This document shows, in pieces, positions 15,112 to 48,298 of a stretch of DNA of 56,409 nt (positions within the stretch are counted from its first letter, which is position 1; each line of letters begins with the position of its first letter). The notes beneath the pieces were generated by a model. It had not been told where the DNA came from, searched no databases, and was given only the letters and a program-made list of their open reading frames with translations. Source of the DNA: a virus (taxonomy: Duplodnaviria > Caudoviricetes); the IMG/VR virus record IMGVR_UViG_3300044681_000017, positions 1 through 56,409 of that record. One strand, written 5' to 3'. A program made the position numbers and the translations under genes.

Positions 15112-15201
15112 TGGCGGAAGGGGTGGGATTTGAACCCACGGAGGGGGTTAACCCTCGCTGGTTTTCAAGACCAGTGCATTCAACCGCTCTGCCACCCTTC
15201 C
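15112..15201 (-). tRNA. tRNA-Ser (anticodon UGA)
   Basis: Cloverleaf with long variable arm, CT-TGA-AA loop, GTTCAAATC, encoded CCA. Confidence 0.95.
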
Positions 15202-15273
15202 TAACCGAATTGAAATAATTGTTACGCAATTGTCTACGTCTTGCTTCACAAGTATTTCTAAATCGTCTAATCA

Positions 15274-15657
15274 TCATTCCTCCGGTAACGGGATAGGTAA
15301 CTCAACCAAGTTGTGTTCTCTATCCAGATATTTCATTTCAATTAAAACGGGTTCCATCTCTTGGATGCTTGAAACCACATCATATGGGTCAAGTTGTCCG
15401 CAAGTGTAAACGTCAAGTTGCAACATTGCGGGTTCTTCTTCATCCCAGATATGTAATGCAATATGACTCGTTTCGATAATCGTAACCGCAGTCAGTCCAC
15501 GGTTACCTTCAACCTCACAATAGATCGAATATGGCCCACCAAGGATTTTCATCCCAATCTTTTCGATTAGGTTTGGAAGCCAAGTCTCACTCATATACGA
15601 GGGGTCAACAATTGGATTGTTGATCTCCGCTCTAACAATTAAGTGTTTATGAAACAT
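15274..15657 (-). CDS. speD: S-adenosylmethionine decarboxylase proenzyme
   Basis: GLTAVTIIETSHIALHIW...LDVYTCG (self-cleavage serine motif). Confidence 0.85.
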   Translation of the reverse strand: MFHKHLIVRAEINNPIVDPSYMSETWLPNLIEKIGMKILGGPYSIYCEVEGNRGLTAVTIIETSHIALHIWDEEEPAMLQLDVYTCGQLDPYDVVSSIQEMEPVLIEMKYLDREHNLVELPIPLPEE

Positions 15658-15677
15658 TATTATTATTATTCCTTATT

Positions 15678-15751
15678 TGGATGCCCCTCGTGGACTTGAA
15701 CCACGACTACCGGAATCAAAATCCAGCGTCCTACCATTAGACGAAGGGGCA
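15678..15751 (-). tRNA. tRNA-Gln (UUG)
   Basis: Cloverleaf, TT-TTG-AT loop, CCA. Confidence 0.93.
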
Positions 15752-15753
15752 AC

Positions 15754-15829
15754 TGGTGATCCCTGTTGGATTCGAACCAACGACCAATTGATTAAAAGTC
15801 AATTGCTCTACCTACTGAGCTAAGGGATC
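15754..15829 (-). tRNA. tRNA-Lys (UUU)
   Basis: Cloverleaf, CT-TTT-AA loop, CCA. Confidence 0.95.
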
Positions 15830-16211
15830 AAACCTTCTTATATCGATTAATAGTCCCATCAGGTTCGACAACCATCAGTTCATCCCGATAATTAGCCATC
15901 ACACGGTATTCCCCTTCAGCAATGATACGATCAAGTTCACGCAACTTACGCATCACAGCATTTGCAACACCAAACTTATTGCGGCCGGTTTCGATTGCTT
16001 CCTCTACCACTTCCGCACAACCATTATATACCTCATCGGGAATAGACCACGAATACTCTGTTGCAGCCTTAAGATCACCAACACGGCGAAGGTACTCCTG
16101 TCCACCATCTACTGAGATAGAACCACACTTACATGTTACAAAATCATGACGATGCTTCGAGAAGATAAAATCATCACAATTATTACAAACCACTGCATTC
16201 TGAACAATCAT
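15828..16211 (-). CDS. Zinc-ribbon hypothetical protein
   Basis: CNNC...CKCG..VDGG motif. Confidence 0.7.
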   Translation of the reverse strand: MIVQNAVVCNNCDDFIFSKHRHDFVTCKCGSISVDGGQEYLRRVGDLKAATEYSWSIPDEVYNGCAEVVEEAIETGRNKFGVANAVMRKLRELDRIIAEGEYRVMANYRDELMVVEPDGTINRYKKV

Positions 16212-16384
16212 TTCTTTGCCTCATATCCATAAATCATACTATCATTAAGTTTTTCATATATGATAGACCTAAGTTGTTGAATGTCTTCCGGAGGAATATA
16301 TCCAACCCTTGAAATCACTTCACCAAGAATTTCATTAACATCTTCAGCAAGTTTACACAACAACAAAATAAAGACTTTCTAAAA

Positions 16385-16460
16385 TGGTGCCCCCAGAGAG
16401 ATTCGAACTCCCGACCTACTGATTACAAATCAGTTGCTCTACCAGCTGAGCTATAAGGGC
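16385..16460 (-). tRNA. tRNA-Thr (UGU)
   Basis: Cloverleaf, TT-TGT-AA loop, CCA. Confidence 0.95.
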
Positions 16461-16464
16461 TATT

Positions 16465-16539
16465 TGGCTCCCTGAGATGGATTCGAACCACCGACCAATT
16501 GATTAACAGTCAACTGCGCTACCGCTGCGCCATCAGGGA
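16465..16539 (-). tRNA. tRNA-Asn (GUU)
   Basis: Cloverleaf, CT-GTT-AA loop, CCA. Confidence 0.95.
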
Positions 16540-43168: not shown

Positions 43169-43393
43169 CTAGACTCCTTTGGGTCTTGCGGGTTTTTCAC
43201 GATTACCATTAATGTAATCGATGTATTCATTATATAGTGCAATAAAATGATCGTTTTCCTGAATCACAGCTTGTAACTTATGAGAAGCTTCTGCGCCACG
43301 CCGGTATACGTTACCATCGTCACTGTACATATAGTACCAGTCATGCTTCTCTAAAAGATCATACAACTCTATGATAGTCAGTTTACGAGTCAT
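43169..43393 (-). CDS. Hypothetical protein
   Basis: HDWYYMYSDD...YRRG motif. Confidence 0.7.
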   Translation of the reverse strand: MTRKLTIIELYDLLEKHDWYYMYSDDGNVYRRGAEASHKLQAVIQENDHFIALYNEYIDYINGNREKPARPKGV

Positions 43394-44009
43394 TCCTCAC
43401 ACTCCAGAAAATGTGTCTTCCAAGTTGGACTTCCTTGTCCATCCTTCGGTTCCATCGTGGGTTAACGTAGTCAGCATGATAGAACAGAGAACCCTTGGTG
43501 ATATCATTACCTTCACCAGTTGCACGATCTCTTGCTACATCCGACACGACTCTATAGATTGATGTATAGGCTTTCCAATTACGAGGAATGTCAGAACGTC
43601 CATCACAGTACCAACTAAATTGACACCTGTTCCTAATAGGTTGACCATCCCTGCCTTCTACGGCCTGAAAGACAACATCACACACAGAATCCGGAAAGAG
43701 ATCACTCTCTACCCGATTCAGTACAACTTGGGTCACACCGATTTGACCAGCAACAGGTTCATCCCTTGCTTCAAAATAAGCATTCGTTGCGAGACATTCG
43801 ATGTCCCTCTCAGAAAAATAGCCATCCCCGCCAATAGCTTCGGAATCAAGAGAGAGAGGTTGAGCCGAAGCAGAACCGTTGGCGGAGATGACCTCCTCCA
43901 GACTATCCAGTCTAGAAGAAACCGTATTAATCAAATATAATTCAAACCCAATAATGGATAAGAAAGCTGCAGCAGCTGCTGCGTATTGAAGTCTAGTCTT
44001 AGTAATCAT
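43383..44009 (-). CDS. SleB-like cell wall hydrolase (Hydrolase_2) with N-terminal membrane anchor
   Basis: CLATNAYFEAR, VLNRV, CQFSW, FYHA, GRHIF. Confidence 0.9.
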   Translation of the reverse strand: MITKTRLQYAAAAAAFLSIIGFELYLINTVSSRLDSLEEVISANGSASAQPLSLDSEAIGGDGYFSERDIECLATNAYFEARDEPVAGQIGVTQVVLNRVESDLFPDSVCDVVFQAVEGRDGQPIRNRCQFSWYCDGRSDIPRNWKAYTSIYRVVSDVARDRATGEGNDITKGSLFYHADYVNPRWNRRMDKEVQLGRHIFWSVRNDS

Positions 44010-44058
44010 GTTTTACCTTTCGTTACTAACCAGACGAGTAGATTAAACACTCAATTTA

Positions 44059-44541
44059 TTACGCTGCACGTTTCTGTTCAAGTTCGTTATACGTGAGGAT
44101 GCTGCCATCCTTCATCTCGTAGAAACACTTGTACGAACCTTCCTCACGGACGTTACCCTCAAGGATAACCCACGCTTCGGTCTTAACAGCAATATCGCCA
44201 CGCATGTAACCATACTCATCATTGATGGTGTGGCGAGTGGCAACCCAACCCAGTTCCTTGTTGTACTCAAGGATAATGGGAGTCTCCCACTTCTCCCAAG
44301 GGGTTTCGTCATCGGCGACTATTTCCCAGTCAAGGATGTACTCCTGATAATAATCGTTGTTCTCTTCAACGATCTTGGTCAGGTTAGGGATACCCTTCTC
44401 AAGAATGCGATTGACGTTCGCAGATGAGAGGTTGGGTACGACATAGGCGTTACCGCCCTTGTACTTCCAATAGTACTCCCCAGTGAAGCCGTTATGAGCG
44501 GCATAGTTTTCACGGATTTGGGTTTGGATTACAAGTTTCAT
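44059..44541 (-). CDS. Hypothetical early protein
   Basis: MKLVIQTQ.RENY...YWKYKGG; has its own early promoter. Confidence 0.7.
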   Translation of the reverse strand: MKLVIQTQIRENYAAHNGFTGEYYWKYKGGNAYVVPNLSSANVNRILEKGIPNLTKIVEENNDYYQEYILDWEIVADDETPWEKWETPIILEYNKELGWVATRHTINDEYGYMRGDIAVKTEAWVILEGNVREEGSYKCFYEMKDGSILTYNELEQKRAA

Positions 44542-44571
44542 AAGTCACCTCTCTCATCAGATTACGTATAC

Positions 44572-44600
44572 ACTATAACCTATCAGGCAGGGAATGTCAA
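44572..44600 (-). promoter_or_regulatory. Sigma70-type early promoter
   Basis: TTGACA-17-TATAGT, followed by leader GTATACGTAATCTGATGAGAGAG. Confidence 0.75.
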
Positions 44601-45352
44601 GCGTTTTTTTGTATTTTTTTCACTAATTCCTTAAAATCTTTCAGATGGAGACTGTTTGGCCCATCCGACAATGCATTGTCCGGATCAGGGTGAACCTCAA
44701 AGAAGAAGTTCTTCACCCCCAATGCAGCCCCAGCGGCCGCTAATGGGATGATAGCAGACCTGTCCGAAGTGTCTACTCGTGCTGGATTTTGAATACTGTG
44801 CGTTACATCAAAAACGACATCAGGATAATTATTTATCATATAATTAAGCCCCACGAAGTCAACGACCAGTCTGTTGTAACCAAAAGAAGTTCCACGTTCT
44901 GTCAACCAGACTTCCTTTGCGCCACTTGCCTTATCTAATACGTCTTGACAATCGTAGGGGGACATAAACTGACCCTTCTTGATATTGACGATCTTACCAC
45001 TGAGAGATGCCGCCTTGATCAGATCAGTCTGTCTAGAGAGTAGGGCAGGAATCTGTAGGACATCAACACAACCGTCATGGTTCTTACTGATATCCATAAC
45101 TTGTTGAACATCATGAACGTCCGTCAAAGTCTTAAGGTCACGGATGCAATCCTTCATCACCCAGAAGTGATTCATGGTCTCCCGAAGACCTACTCCACGA
45201 GGACTATCTTTCTTACTACGATTCGCCTTGTCATAGGAAGCCTTGAAGTAATAGTCAATACCATATTCATCACATACCGACTTACAGTAAGACGCAATCT
45301 CCATAGACATCTCTAGAGATTCGTGTTGACAAGGCCCTGCAATAATTCTCAT
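44597..45352 (-). CDS. kdsA: Kdo-8-phosphate synthase
   Basis: IAGPC, KASYDKANRS, QIPA, KKGQF, ERG, DVTH, ALSDG. Confidence 0.92.
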   Translation of the reverse strand: MRIIAGPCQHESLEMSMEIASYCKSVCDEYGIDYYFKASYDKANRSKKDSPRGVGLRETMNHFWVMKDCIRDLKTLTDVHDVQQVMDISKNHDGCVDVLQIPALLSRQTDLIKAASLSGKIVNIKKGQFMSPYDCQDVLDKASGAKEVWLTERGTSFGYNRLVVDFVGLNYMINNYPDVVFDVTHSIQNPARVDTSDRSAIIPLAAAGAALGVKNFFFEVHPDPDNALSDGPNSLHLKDFKELVKKIQKNA

Positions 45353-46038
45353 ACCAAATTGTTCCTCAGATGCCAAGAGTGTACGTCAGCCACTGTGTTA
45401 ATTTCCACACCATCAAACTGAGTCTCATATACAGATATTGGAACTTCGTTTTCAATCCATCGAAGTTGTTCCAGACTTTCAATTTCTTCATACAAACTCG
45501 TTTCCCAATTTAGGTAATCCTTCAACGTTTCATTTCGATATCCGTAAACACCAAGGTGTCGAACACCATAGGTGATATCACGAGCGAACCAATGAGCGAC
45601 ATAATTATTATGTACCATCTTAACGTTGTGACGGTTGTTTTGTTCCTGTTCCGTCATCTTGGTATATAGAGTGGCCACAAGTGCATCTTCATTATGCAAA
45701 CCGTGTACCAACATATCAATCATTGTTGTTGTGATGTCAGGCATATCTCCCTGAACATTAATAAAGTACTCGTATTGGTCTAGTTCACTAATAAAGGATG
45801 CAGAGGCACATCGTTCAGTTCCATTATTATAATAGACAGACGAATCAACAATTGTCTCAAAACCCTTTACCAGCTTTGCAACTTTGACATCATCTGTTAG
45901 AACATAGACTGGATACCCAGTCATTTCACATGCTTCCGCAACTCTCCTAATCATAGGAACTCCACCAAGTTTCACGGTAGGTTTATTAGGCAGACGCCTA
46001 CTACCAAGACGAGCGGGAATTAGAATTGCAGTGTTCAT
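45349..46038 (-). CDS. kdsB: CMP-Kdo synthetase
   Basis: IPARLGSRRLPNK, GTER, NVQGD, HLGVYGY, ESLEQLR. Confidence 0.92.
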   Translation of the reverse strand: MNTAILIPARLGSRRLPNKPTVKLGGVPMIRRVAEACEMTGYPVYVLTDDVKVAKLVKGFETIVDSSVYYNNGTERCASASFISELDQYEYFINVQGDMPDITTTMIDMLVHGLHNEDALVATLYTKMTEQEQNNRHNVKMVHNNYVAHWFARDITYGVRHLGVYGYRNETLKDYLNWETSLYEEIESLEQLRWIENEVPISVYETQFDGVEINTVADVHSWHLRNNLV

Positions 46039-46051
46039 AATATACTTTCAT

Positions 46052-46137
46052 TGGTGCGGGTAGCCGGAGTCGAACCGGCACACCATAAAGGCGAGAGATT
46101 TTAAGTCTCTTGTGTCTACCGATTCCACCATACCCGC
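46052..46137 (-). tRNA. tRNA-Leu (UAA)
   Basis: Cloverleaf with long variable arm, CT-TAA-AA loop, CCA. Confidence 0.95.
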
Positions 46138-46142
46138 AGAGA

Positions 46143-46210
46143 TGGAGCGGAGTGATGGAGTCTCACCACCCTACGGTACAGGGAATGTACCGCTGTCATA
46201 GACCCTCCGC
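46143..46210 (-). ncRNA. Non-canonical tRNA-Gly(UCC)-like RNA
   Basis: GCGGAG/CTCCGC acceptor stem plus U73-CCA; GGTAC-AT-TCC-CT-GTACC arm; T-arm with TGAGACT loop; shortened D-arm. Confidence 0.75.
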
Positions 46211-46215
46211 ATAAT

Positions 46216-46292
46216 TGGCGTCCCCTGAGAGATTCGAACTCCCGACCCTGTGCTTAGAAGGCACATGCTCTATCCAGCTGAGCTAAGAGGAC
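46216..46292 (-). tRNA. tRNA-Arg (UCU)
   Basis: Cloverleaf, CT-TCT-AA loop, CCA. Confidence 0.95.
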
Positions 46293-46810
46293 AATGATTC
46301 CAGAATGTTTTCCGGATTCGAAACTTCATAGGGATCAACAGGACAGTTATCACACATACCAGCTTCTACCCAATATTCTGTAATTACAAGGTTATCGATC
46401 ATGCTTGCGTAACGCCAAGAACGATTGCCGAAACCGAGATTGGATTTGTCAACCAACATACCCATACCCTTTGCAAAGTCTCCGTTACCATCAGGCAGCA
46501 TCTTAACATTCTTAATACCAAGTTGGCAAGCCCATTGGTACATAGAAAATGCATCGTTTACAGACGTACACCAAATTTCATCAATGCCCTTTGCAATGAA
46601 ATCATCATAGAGACGTTCAAAGTTAGGTAGTTGTTCGTTAGTACATGTGGGCGTGAATGCGCCTGGCAGACCGAAGACGAGTACCTTCTTACCACCAAAG
46701 AGTTCTGCCGTAGTCTTCCGAACCCATCGGAAGGGATTGGCCCCTCCGATAGACTCATCACGTTCACGCATATGGAAGACTACATCTGGTGCGTAGTCAG
46801 CCCACTTCAC
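46283..46810 (-). CDS. Peroxiredoxin (Prx5-like redoxin)
   Basis: LPGAFTPTC, SVND, DGNGDF, RSWRY. Confidence 0.92.
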   Translation of the reverse strand: MKWADYAPDVVFHMRERDESIGGANPFRWVRKTTAELFGGKKVLVFGLPGAFTPTCTNEQLPNFERLYDDFIAKGIDEIWCTSVNDAFSMYQWACQLGIKNVKMLPDGNGDFAKGMGMLVDKSNLGFGNRSWRYASMIDNLVITEYWVEAGMCDNCPVDPYEVSNPENILESLSS

Positions 46811-47710: not shown

Positions 47711-48298
47711 TTATAGTTTAGTCAACCAAATTTGTAAACTTTTTCTGAGGTTACCCTCAACCACTGGTGTGGTCTTGTGATGTACGTCAGCCTCTAAGAG
47801 AACCGCCCTGTTATACGAGGGTGTGACTCTTTCGATGGAATCTTTATCATCAATATCCATAGTATACAAGAACTCACCACCTTTGTCAAGCCCCCATTTA
47901 CGATTTAAATACACCGTCAATGCACCGTGTCGGTCAGGGGTAAGTTTTGGTGCATAATCACAATGCCAGTTAATCCTAGACTGTGGTGTCCATATGTGAA
48001 ACATAGGGCCGTAGATCACACGAAACCCATATGGTTCAACCAAGGCATTGACCCGATTCGTTACCCAATCTGAAAACCTAGCATGGTTCTTTTCTATCGT
48101 ATGGATCAGAACAAGATATGGGGTTTCAGTCTCTTTCCCATCAATGTAGTTCAGAGGACTACCCCAATCAAAGATATTACAATCAAACTTATGTCTTCCG
48201 GAAGCACCCTTCTCATACAAAACAGAATTCAGATAATGTGATATTTTTGACACGGTATCGTCATCAAAAAAATTATCGATCACATGTATCTTACCCAT
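47711..48298 (-). CDS. 2OG-Fe(II) oxygenase (prolyl-hydroxylase-like)
   Basis: WHCD...VYLN..W...GGEF...P.YNRAV...HHKT...RKS. Confidence 0.85.
   Translation of the reverse strand: MGKIHVIDNFFDDDTVSKISHYLNSVLYEKGASGRHKFDCNIFDWGSPLNYIDGKETETPYLVLIHTIEKNHARFSDWVTNRVNALVEPYGFRVIYGPMFHIWTPQSRINWHCDYAPKLTPDRHGALTVYLNRKWGLDKGGEFLYTMDIDDKDSIERVTPSYNRAVLLEADVHHKTTPVVEGNLRKSLQIWLTKL

Follow-up and report, generated by a model that had tools for sequence, protein, structure and literature searches.

In animal mitochondria, tRNAs without a D arm have a short connector and a lengthened anticodon helix, and their T arm does without the usual contacts between the D and T loops. In staphylococci, the non-proteogenic tRNA-Gly species (NP1-3) are UCC glycine tRNAs with TGC or TGT in place of TTC in the T loop; their binding to EF-Tu and the ribosome is poor, and FmhB prefers them (PMC7826273). 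Replacement of TTC by TGC or TGT means that pseudouridine 55 is absent. The same account describes them as full-size cloverleaves with unusual D and T regions, with FmhB, FemA, and FemB as partners, and as a lineage found in staphylococci only (PMC7826273). Phage T4 encodes two small RNAs, RNA C and RNA D (species 1 and 2 RNAs), whose roles are given as unknown in two reports (PMC3014915; PMC9697503). Phage tRNA variants are reported to rescue infection from tRNA-targeting defenses, namely PARIS and retron effectors, and the changes in their sequence are connected with the host factors by which tRNA is attacked (PMC11464382, PMC11555353). Here, we analyze a tRNA-like element of 68 nucleotides (nt) in a virus record of IMG/VR (IMGVR_UViG_3300044681_000017; 56,409 bases, estimated to be about 33% complete), the whole length of which is referred to as the window. 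The element is the reverse complement of window positions 46143 to 46210 and thus lies on the minus strand, between genes for tRNA-Arg and tRNA-Leu and separated from each by a 5-nt spacer, where a first-pass annotation had placed a non-canonical tRNA-Gly(UCC)-like RNA.

A covariance model, R1, was built from the element alone and scanned over 80 loci that had been retrieved via a gp46-like protein, with up to 6 kilobases (kb) on each side. Nine matches were found at an expectation value (E) of ≤1. R1 scores 103.5 bits on the element itself and 97.3 bits on a copy in the nearest relative (contig L002); in addition, it matches an identical 74-nt sequence in five contigs (L028, L029, L030, L031, and L081; 37.6 bits, E of 2.4e-8) and a 74-nt sequence in L032 (40 bits). 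ARAGORN, run on 23 of the 80 loci, called the five identical sequences tRNA-Gly(TCC), within an array of tRNA-Arg(TCT), tRNA-Gly, and tRNA-Thr with 4-nt spacers, and the L032 sequence tRNA-Gly(CCC), immediately 3' of tRNA-Arg; in eight loci (L020 to L027), tRNA-Arg stands alone. The matches to the relatives' tRNA-Gly genes (37.6 to 40 bits, E about 1e-8 to 1e-9) are therefore beyond chance, and the element shares its slot with these genes, directly downstream of tRNA-Arg(UCU) and after the gp45 region. At the level of sequence, it is thus firmly shown that the element is a remodeled descendant of the clade's tRNA-Gly gene, and the tRNA-Gly(UCC) origin proposed in the first-pass annotation stands on both the R1 homology and the shared slot.

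To place the changes that are private to the element, four sequences (the window, L002, L032, and L028) were compared segment by segment. The acceptor stem consists of six pairs and one mismatch, compared with 7 base pairs (bp) in the canonical form. Its 5' strand, GCGGAG (positions 1 to 6; 46205..46210, minus strand, as for all parts of the element), is the same in the window, the L002 copy, the tRNA-Gly(CCC) gene of L032, and the tRNA-Gly(UCC) gene of L028, and the pairs are G1-C72, C2-G71, G3-C70, G4-C69, A5-U68, and G6-C67, followed by a mismatch of G7 (46204) with A66. The T-stem 5' strand is also common to all four sequences, as is the segment at 46143..46153, which comprises A66, the 3' acceptor strand CTCCGC, the discriminator U73, and an encoded CCA. 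CCA is encoded in the tRNA-Arg and tRNA-Leu genes as well. The identity elements of bacterial glycyl-tRNA synthetase (GlyRS) lie among acceptor and anticodon nucleotides, and those listed in the first-pass annotation are present in the element.

The interior of the element departs further from a tRNA. G8, U9, and a 9-nt remnant of the D arm, CTATGACAG, occupy 46193..46203; the remnant, which is 15 nt long in the relatives, has no GG, G8 replaces U8, and the stretch could form a 3-bp mini hairpin (positions 8 to 10 with 14 to 16). The anticodon arm (46174..46192) is made up of C26:G44 and the stem GGUAC/GUACC around the loop AUUCCCU, with U33 present, the anticodon UCC at 46182-46184, and C37 at 46181; this 6-bp helix is extendable to 7 to 8 bp, in agreement with the 7 bp described earlier. 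In the T arm (46154..46170), the stem is GGUGG/CCAUC and the loop UGAGACU (46159-46165), where U54, R57, and A58 are retained and the UC of positions 55 and 56 has given way to GA; the G50.U64 pair of the window is G50-C64 in L002 and L028. Each of the losses claimed in the first-pass annotation (the D-loop GG, a full D arm, U55/C56, and purine 37) can be read directly from the sequence.

Six substitutions, at positions where both outgroups agree, belong to the element alone, namely U7>G, U8>G, A37>C, U42>C (which turns a G.U pair into G-C), G45>U, and C56>A, and the D region has been shortened from 15 to 9 nt by a 6-nt deletion. Like the element, the canonical tRNA-Gly(UCC) of L028 to L031 and L081 has this slot, acceptor pairs 1 to 6, the T-stem 5' strand, U73, CCA, and the anticodon UCC; unlike it, the element has a D arm that is 6 nt shorter, G7, G8, and C37, a T loop of UGAGACU instead of UUCGAUU, and three anticodon-stem pairs that are changed on both sides. 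The L032 gene (8781-8854, plus strand; IMGVR_UViG_3300012920_000126) is a full-size 74-nt tRNA-Gly right after tRNA-Arg, with the D loop AAAAGTA, which has no GG, and the T loop TGCGAAT, which has G55. It has in common with the element G55, the missing D-loop GG, a CGGUAC/GUAC(Y)G anticodon helix, and the CCAUC strand of the T stem, whereas it differs in its full 74-nt cloverleaf, U8, C56, A37, its score of 54.4 bits as a tRNA, and the anticodon CCC. Judged by its nucleotides, the L032 gene is an intermediate form, without G18G19 and with G55.

The first-pass annotation had proposed covariation across related phages as a check. When the four distinct sequences are fitted to the model and aligned, pairing extends to 98.8% of the cells and five pairs change on both sides, a result reached by 6 of 500 shuffles; four of the five double-sided changes fall in the anticodon helix. 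Covariation was thus found, and it separates the canonical gene from the rest. As far as this alignment reaches, it is clear from the compensatory changes that the lineage has evolved with the structure of a tRNA, and constraint on the derived form is not thereby shown.

Programs that detect tRNAs do not recognize the derived form. ARAGORN called seven tRNAs in the window and none at the element, and with seven option sets (including -ps, -ps90, -ps80, -mt, and -mtx) it never called the element tRNA-Gly; the sole call, under -mt -ps80, was a 'Trp(cca)' in a different register that partly overlaps the element and extends into tRNA-Leu. At the gathering score (29 bits for RF00005), Rfam matched the same seven tRNAs in the window and nothing at the element, and a permissive Rfam scan of 46100-46250 (E ≤ 10) gave no RF00005 match on it. 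The L002 copy has no RF00005 match either, while the canonical tRNA-Gly gene scores 58.6 bits. The first-pass annotation had expected tRNA finders to score the element low or as a pseudogene, and both programs miss it altogether. The element is firmly shown not to be a standard tRNA. Its minimum free energy (MFE) is -28.1 kcal/mol (z = -2.2), a modest signal given that 6 of 200 shuffles fold as well. The MFE structure is a rod in which positions 7 to 11 pair with the T loop; a cloverleaf-like fold that includes the mini hairpin reaches -27.7 kcal/mol.

Set beside the described systems, the element resembles each of them in part. The likeness to the staphylococcal tRNA-Gly species drawn in the first-pass annotation holds for the exchange of U55 for G, which is the same kind of change; it fails for the triplet, which is UGA, and for the D arm, which is cut down in the element. 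C56 is also lost, and no Fem-type gene was found in the record, both unlike the staphylococcal case. It is the L032 gene, with its TGC, missing GG, and full cloverleaf, that resembles the staphylococcal species more closely. Cyanobacteria, which likely include the host (see below), are not known to have glycine bridges. Like the element, RNA C and RNA D of T4 are small RNAs in a T4-type tRNA cluster directly downstream of tRNA-Arg, and RNA C has a T arm near its 3' end: in T4 (L141, NC_000866 70908-71247), rnaD and rnaC come next after tRNA-Arg (gaps, 1 and 6 nt), and rnaC ends in a canonical T arm (CCGGGTTCGAATCCCGG). Unlike the element, they are 119 and 139 nt long and have no glycine-type anticodon arm. 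Run with filters off over the 5-kb T4 tRNA region, R1 found nothing on rnaC or rnaD and gave eight weak matches, the best two being tRNA-Gly (16.9 bits) and tRNA-Thr (16.3 bits). Because rnaC and rnaD escape detection by R1, the resemblance lies in place and kind rather than in descent.

The D-arm-less mitochondrial tRNAs are like the element in outline, and the mitochondrial models of ARAGORN do not call it. In a limited search of the literature, no phage tRNA lacking the D arm was found, and such tRNAs are not known to occur in bacteria or phages. The phage tRNAs that rescue infection from PARIS or retron effectors are unlike the element in being working replacement tRNAs with normal cloverleaves, whereas the core of the element is lost. 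We know of no glycine-tRNA-directed defense in the host of the element.

The position of the element differs between two close relatives. The nearest relative is a single 22,648-base contig, met in our searches as L002, L006, L013, and L019, with a gp46 90% and a peroxiredoxin 88% identical to those of the window. Here, tRNA-Arg and tRNA-Leu are separated by a 5-nt spacer with no element between them, and the relative's copy (L002 5688-5755) lies 2 kb downstream, between a 161-amino-acid open reading frame (ORF) and a hydrolase gene. It is identical to the window's at 65 of 68 positions. The corresponding site in the window ('site B'; 44010..44058, minus strand) is empty and lies between a 160-amino-acid ORF (44059-44541) and a cell-wall-hydrolase ORF (43383-44009). 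At this site, the L002 insert consists of TT, the 68 nt, and TCTTTT, after 'taaattg', that is, with about 8 nt of flank, and the flanks are alike at both insertion sites (T-[element]-TCT). The three differences between the copies are C19U (C-G to U.G), U56C (G.U to G-C), and C51U (T-loop position 59), and none of them breaks a pair. Because the two copies share all derived features, the element was already remodeled when they separated.

Contigs from sequencing runs of two other studies (X4 and X5; contigs only) contain the element in a second genomic background. Record 18 of X4 covers 46102-46294 and record 28 of X5 covers 46092-46294, both with tRNA-Arg, the element, and tRNA-Leu and with 0 substitutions; the single change is one inserted base in the spacer beside tRNA-Leu. 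Over the kdsB-like gene, contigs from these runs differ from the window at 21 of 131 positions, and upstream of tRNA-Arg, the X4 and X5 contigs cease to resemble the window. In loci L020 and L033, tRNA-Gly is missing and tRNA-Arg is succeeded by the next gene without any trace of it, so that dead copies seem to be cleanly removed. As a separate observation, a contig of X5 (window 46131-46222; depth 8.7, with 20 nt on its short side) runs from the beginning of tRNA-Leu straight into the end of tRNA-Arg, without the element in between. This weakly supported join is the arrangement of the nearest relative and, if real, would mean that both forms co-occur in one sample.

Searches for further copies, in collections that may lack records of the window's own genome, returned little. 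R1 found no second copy across the window and nothing new on 36 loci retrieved via the kdsB-like protein. Scanning the records of 49 relatives over their full length added nothing to the copies already known from the loci; for the other 30 of the 80 gp46 loci, the scan extended over up to 6 kb on each side. A 22-mer of the anticodon arm had 0 matches in IMG/VR, an acceptor plus T-loop pattern had four matches there, all by chance and within non-tRNA sequence, and a permissive pattern had 0 matches in JGI metagenome contigs; these three patterns missed the relative's copy because of C19U and C51U. A pattern for the G55-type T arm and tail found only the L002 and L032 contigs in IMG/VR and nothing in species genomes of bacteria and archaea (one per species), where a pattern for the D arm and anticodon arm also found nothing. 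No GenBank phage matched across the element in a BLAST search with the 68 nt, the best E being about 2. A 33-mer of tRNA-Leu found only the nearest relative in JGI metagenome contigs, and a 26-mer found, in IMG/VR, the nearest relative and two contigs of an unrelated phage. In these two contigs of about 94 kb (L007 11921-11946 and L008 2721-2746, both minus strand), the first 33 or so nt of a tRNA-Leu nearly identical to the window's give way to unrelated sequence and an ORF; no tRNA-Leu is called there by ARAGORN, and the gene may be interrupted by an intron or endonuclease or may be truncated. R1 also gave a 62-nt match at 18 bits (E of 0.036) in L052 (8664-8725, plus strand) and L053 (5215-5276, plus strand), which was not accepted as a homologue; the stretch folds as two hairpins after the stop of an ORF. 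That ORF is homologous to the ORF upstream of tRNA-Arg in L032, no tRNA-Arg is present there, and the 62 nt might be either a remnant in a later state of decay or a terminator with no relation to the element.

Whether the element is under constraint was approached through its divergence from the relative's copy. Between the window and the nearest relative, 534 of 3705 coding positions and 148 of 461 four-fold sites differ, compared with 5 of 77 positions in tRNA-Arg, 3 of 86 in tRNA-Leu, and 3 of 68 in the element. At face value, the element would therefore appear to evolve like a tRNA; the genomes are mosaic, however, and this comparison is not used. The ORF beside the relative's copy itself differs at only 7 of 480 positions (1.5%) and 2 of 61 four-fold sites. 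It belongs to a block of 97 to 100% identity (window 44060-44700 versus L019) that covers the 160-amino-acid ORF and the end of the kdsA-like gene, has flanks of 65 to 85% identity, and stops exactly at the insertion site, where the next block is 65 to 79% identical. For these reasons, an argument from rates was dropped: given the mean divergence of the flanks, three or fewer differences in 68 would have a probability of 8e-3, and given the four-fold rate, one of 2e-8, but the adjoining ORF is itself only 1.5% diverged. When random decay was simulated from the L032 gene, the 16 helix pairs together with UCCA, U33, and C35C36, a set of features picked after seeing the data, survived in 2.7e-2 of trials with 8 substitutions, 4.2e-3 with 12, and 6.3e-4 with 16.

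Two readings of the derived form are nearly tied. The one that we consider most likely, and hold tentatively, is that the element has been retained as a compact tRNA-like RNA that is not a normal elongator and has a role off the ribosome. The other, which is also quite possible, is that it is a decaying tRNA-Gly pseudogene, in which a redundant gene would have suffered a D-arm deletion and hits to its core and would be heading for deletion, having been spread by recombination with stems too young to have broken. We lean slightly toward retention because the remodeled copy, which would be a degenerate 68-nt piece if it were decaying, was cleanly inserted at the second site and is kept there as the only copy; because the element is invariant in the second genomic background and unchanged in three samples; because the acceptor, anticodon, and T helices, the tail with U73 and CCA, U33, and the anticodon UCC are intact; and because the tRNA-Gly genes lost elsewhere in the clade leave no relics. 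That the three known differences between the copies break no pair also argues against decay.

A considerable body of observations weighs on the other side. U8, G18, G19, U55, C56, and purine 37, all of them universally conserved in the tRNA core, are absent, the acceptor pair 7:66 is broken, the D stem is destroyed, and no tRNA score is obtained where the relatives' tRNA-Gly genes reach 54 to 59 bits. Only two of the private substitutions fall in the 34 helix positions and four in the 25 others, and with so few changes, helix avoidance is not significant (P about 0.2 by a rough hand Fisher estimate). The three copy differences are as compatible with the rod-like fold as with the cloverleaf-like one, and because the genomes are mosaic, the 65 of 68 identity is not clean evidence of constraint; recent recombination can account for it. 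The derived form is rare, being present in the window and one other IMG/VR contig and in none of the GenBank phages or 185,579 species genomes searched, and two related records that are 46 to 65% complete (G007 and G014) have no copy. The content of the slot changes freely from one relative to another (Arg only, Arg-Gly-Thr, Arg-Gly(CCC), or Arg-Leu), and the nearest relative has deleted the element from this site. An RNA run (X15; contigs only) had no contig over the element, a result that speaks neither for nor against expression. As the first-pass annotation had considered against its own proposal, relatives do carry a normal tRNA-Gly, the canonical gene occupying this slot in five contigs; the divergence in the element, which is the other half of that objection, may or may not be random.

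Partner enzymes for an aminoacyl-tRNA diverted from translation were also sought. Six-frame searches of the record, which covers about a third of the genome, gave 0 matches at E ≤ 1 for FemAB, Acetyltransf_6, and LPG_synthase_C, and none at that threshold for Leu/Phe-transferase, GNAT Acetyltransf_1, or cyclodipeptide synthase (transferase families PF02388, PF13480, PF09924, PF03588, PF00583, and PF16715), results that likewise count against a retained function. The CCA-adding enzyme family also had no match at E ≤ 1 in this incomplete record. Each family search gave matches in control genomes. The search for Fem- or GNAT-type transferases suggested in the first-pass annotation thus came back empty, and the glycyl-carrier or decoy role proposed there gains no direct support, with no transferase found and the T stem unchanged. 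The T stem, which carries the affinity for EF-Tu, is the same as that of the canonical relative and therefore shows no sign of selection against EF-Tu binding.

Two other explanations are less probable. The element might be a working glycine elongator of a reduced, mitochondrion-like design, in which the loop replacing the D arm and the longer anticodon helix would keep the distance between acceptor and anticodon and which would read GGA and GGG. This is improbable in our view, even though the acceptor stem, U33, UCC, U73, CCA, and a T stem like that of the canonical relative are kept and C26:G44 lengthens the anticodon helix, as in D-arm-less animal mitochondrial tRNAs. The mitochondrial modes of ARAGORN make no tRNA-Gly call, and in bacteria, the elbow is contacted by the ribosome and by modification enzymes. 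Also against it are several features that are not known from bacterial elongator tRNAs, namely C37, G8, a possible pair of A32 with U38, and the absence of U55 and C56. That the seven tRNAs of the window include no other tRNA-Gly would fit an elongator, but the window shows only about 33% of the genome. Least probable of all, and very much so, is a cis-acting cassette, either a tRNA-like processing site in polycistronic transcripts or a recombination or mobility module at mosaic junctions. The relative's copy does stand alone between two protein genes where the block of 97 to 100% identity meets that of 65 to 79%, the X4 and X5 contigs diverge from the window just upstream of tRNA-Arg, and the flanks at the two sites are similar; at the window's site, however, the neighboring tRNAs already provide processing signals, no repeats, target duplication, or nuclease gene are seen beside the element, and only two insertion sites are available for comparison.

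By descent, the element goes back to the canonical tRNA-Gly(UCC) that stands after tRNA-Arg(UCU) in Kyanoviridae-type cyanophages. The intermediate form has no G18G19 and has G55; 6 nt of the D arm were then lost, and U8G, U7G, C56A, and A37C were gained. The six acceptor pairs and the T stem remain, as do U33, the anticodon UCC, U73, and the encoded CCA, and the anticodon helix is lengthened. If the element is indeed retained as an off-ribosome tRNA-like RNA, it would be cotranscribed with tRNA-Arg and tRNA-Leu and freed by RNase P and 3' trimming via its acceptor/T minihelix, and GlyRS may still charge it. Without an elbow and a purine at position 37, it would be a poor ribosomal substrate, so that any role would lie off the ribosome. 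It could serve as a glycine donor, or it could draw off a factor aimed at tRNA-Gly, as a sink or decoy; which of these it would be is a guess. A bolder and unlikely version is that a lineage of cyanophage glycine tRNAs shed its elbow stepwise, losing GG and U55 first (as in L032) and then the D arm and C56, and that the 68-nt product would still be processed, accept glycine, and travel from one intergenic site or phage genome to another as a mobile cassette of about 76 nt. Off the ribosome, it would serve as a glycine donor or as a decoy or sink for a host factor directed against tRNA-Gly or Gly-tRNA-Gly.

What the element means depends on which of these readings is right. Should the RNA be produced and maintained by selection, a tRNA would have been reduced in a bacterial virus much as in animal mitochondria, and a phage case would be added to the few tRNAs known to be diverted from translation. 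The element would then also offer a small, testable object for the role of tRNA-like RNAs in T4-type tRNA clusters, a question open since RNA C and RNA D of T4 were described. Should the bolder version, with its stepwise loss of the elbow, prove true, this would be the first bacterial-virus counterpart of the mitochondrial minimal tRNAs and the staphylococcal non-proteogenic tRNA-Gly. If the element is a relic, it would be a snapshot of gain, remodeling, and loss in a phage tRNA array, with the canonical, intermediate, and derived forms and clean deletions in one clade, and a warning that intact stems by themselves do not show function.

The surroundings of the element place it in a T4-like genome. 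Upstream, the spacer ATTAT (46211-46215) separates it from tRNA-Arg(UCU) (46216..46292, minus strand; called by ARAGORN, Rfam 64.2 bits), and downstream, the spacer TCTCT (46138-46142) separates it from tRNA-Leu(UAA) (46052..46137, minus strand; called by ARAGORN, Rfam 59.9 bits). Genes for a gp46-like SbcC subunit, the gp45 sliding clamp, a 2OG-Fe(II) oxygenase, and a peroxiredoxin precede the three RNA genes, which are followed by genes for a kdsB-like cytidylyltransferase and a kdsA-like protein of the DAHP-synthase family, the 160-amino-acid ORF, and the cell-wall hydrolase. No Pfam, PHROG, or Atlas lead was found for the 160-amino-acid ORF. The nearest GenBank phages are cyanophages, led by phage C48C1 (Kyanoviridae; 69% identity over 18% of a 7-kb query) and followed by Synechococcus phages, and the sequencing runs containing this stretch are labeled freshwater metagenomes. 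The source is a freshwater T4-like cyanophage, with a cyanobacterium as the likely host. The auxiliary genes (kdsB-like, kdsA-like, peroxiredoxin, and 2OG-Fe(II) oxygenase; 44597-46038, 46283-46810, and 47711-48298, all on the minus strand) adjoin the gp45 and gp46 genes. A second tRNA cluster (Asn, Thr, Lys, Gln, and Ser; window 15112-16539, minus strand) has two gaps of about 0.5 kb with ORFs between its tRNA genes.

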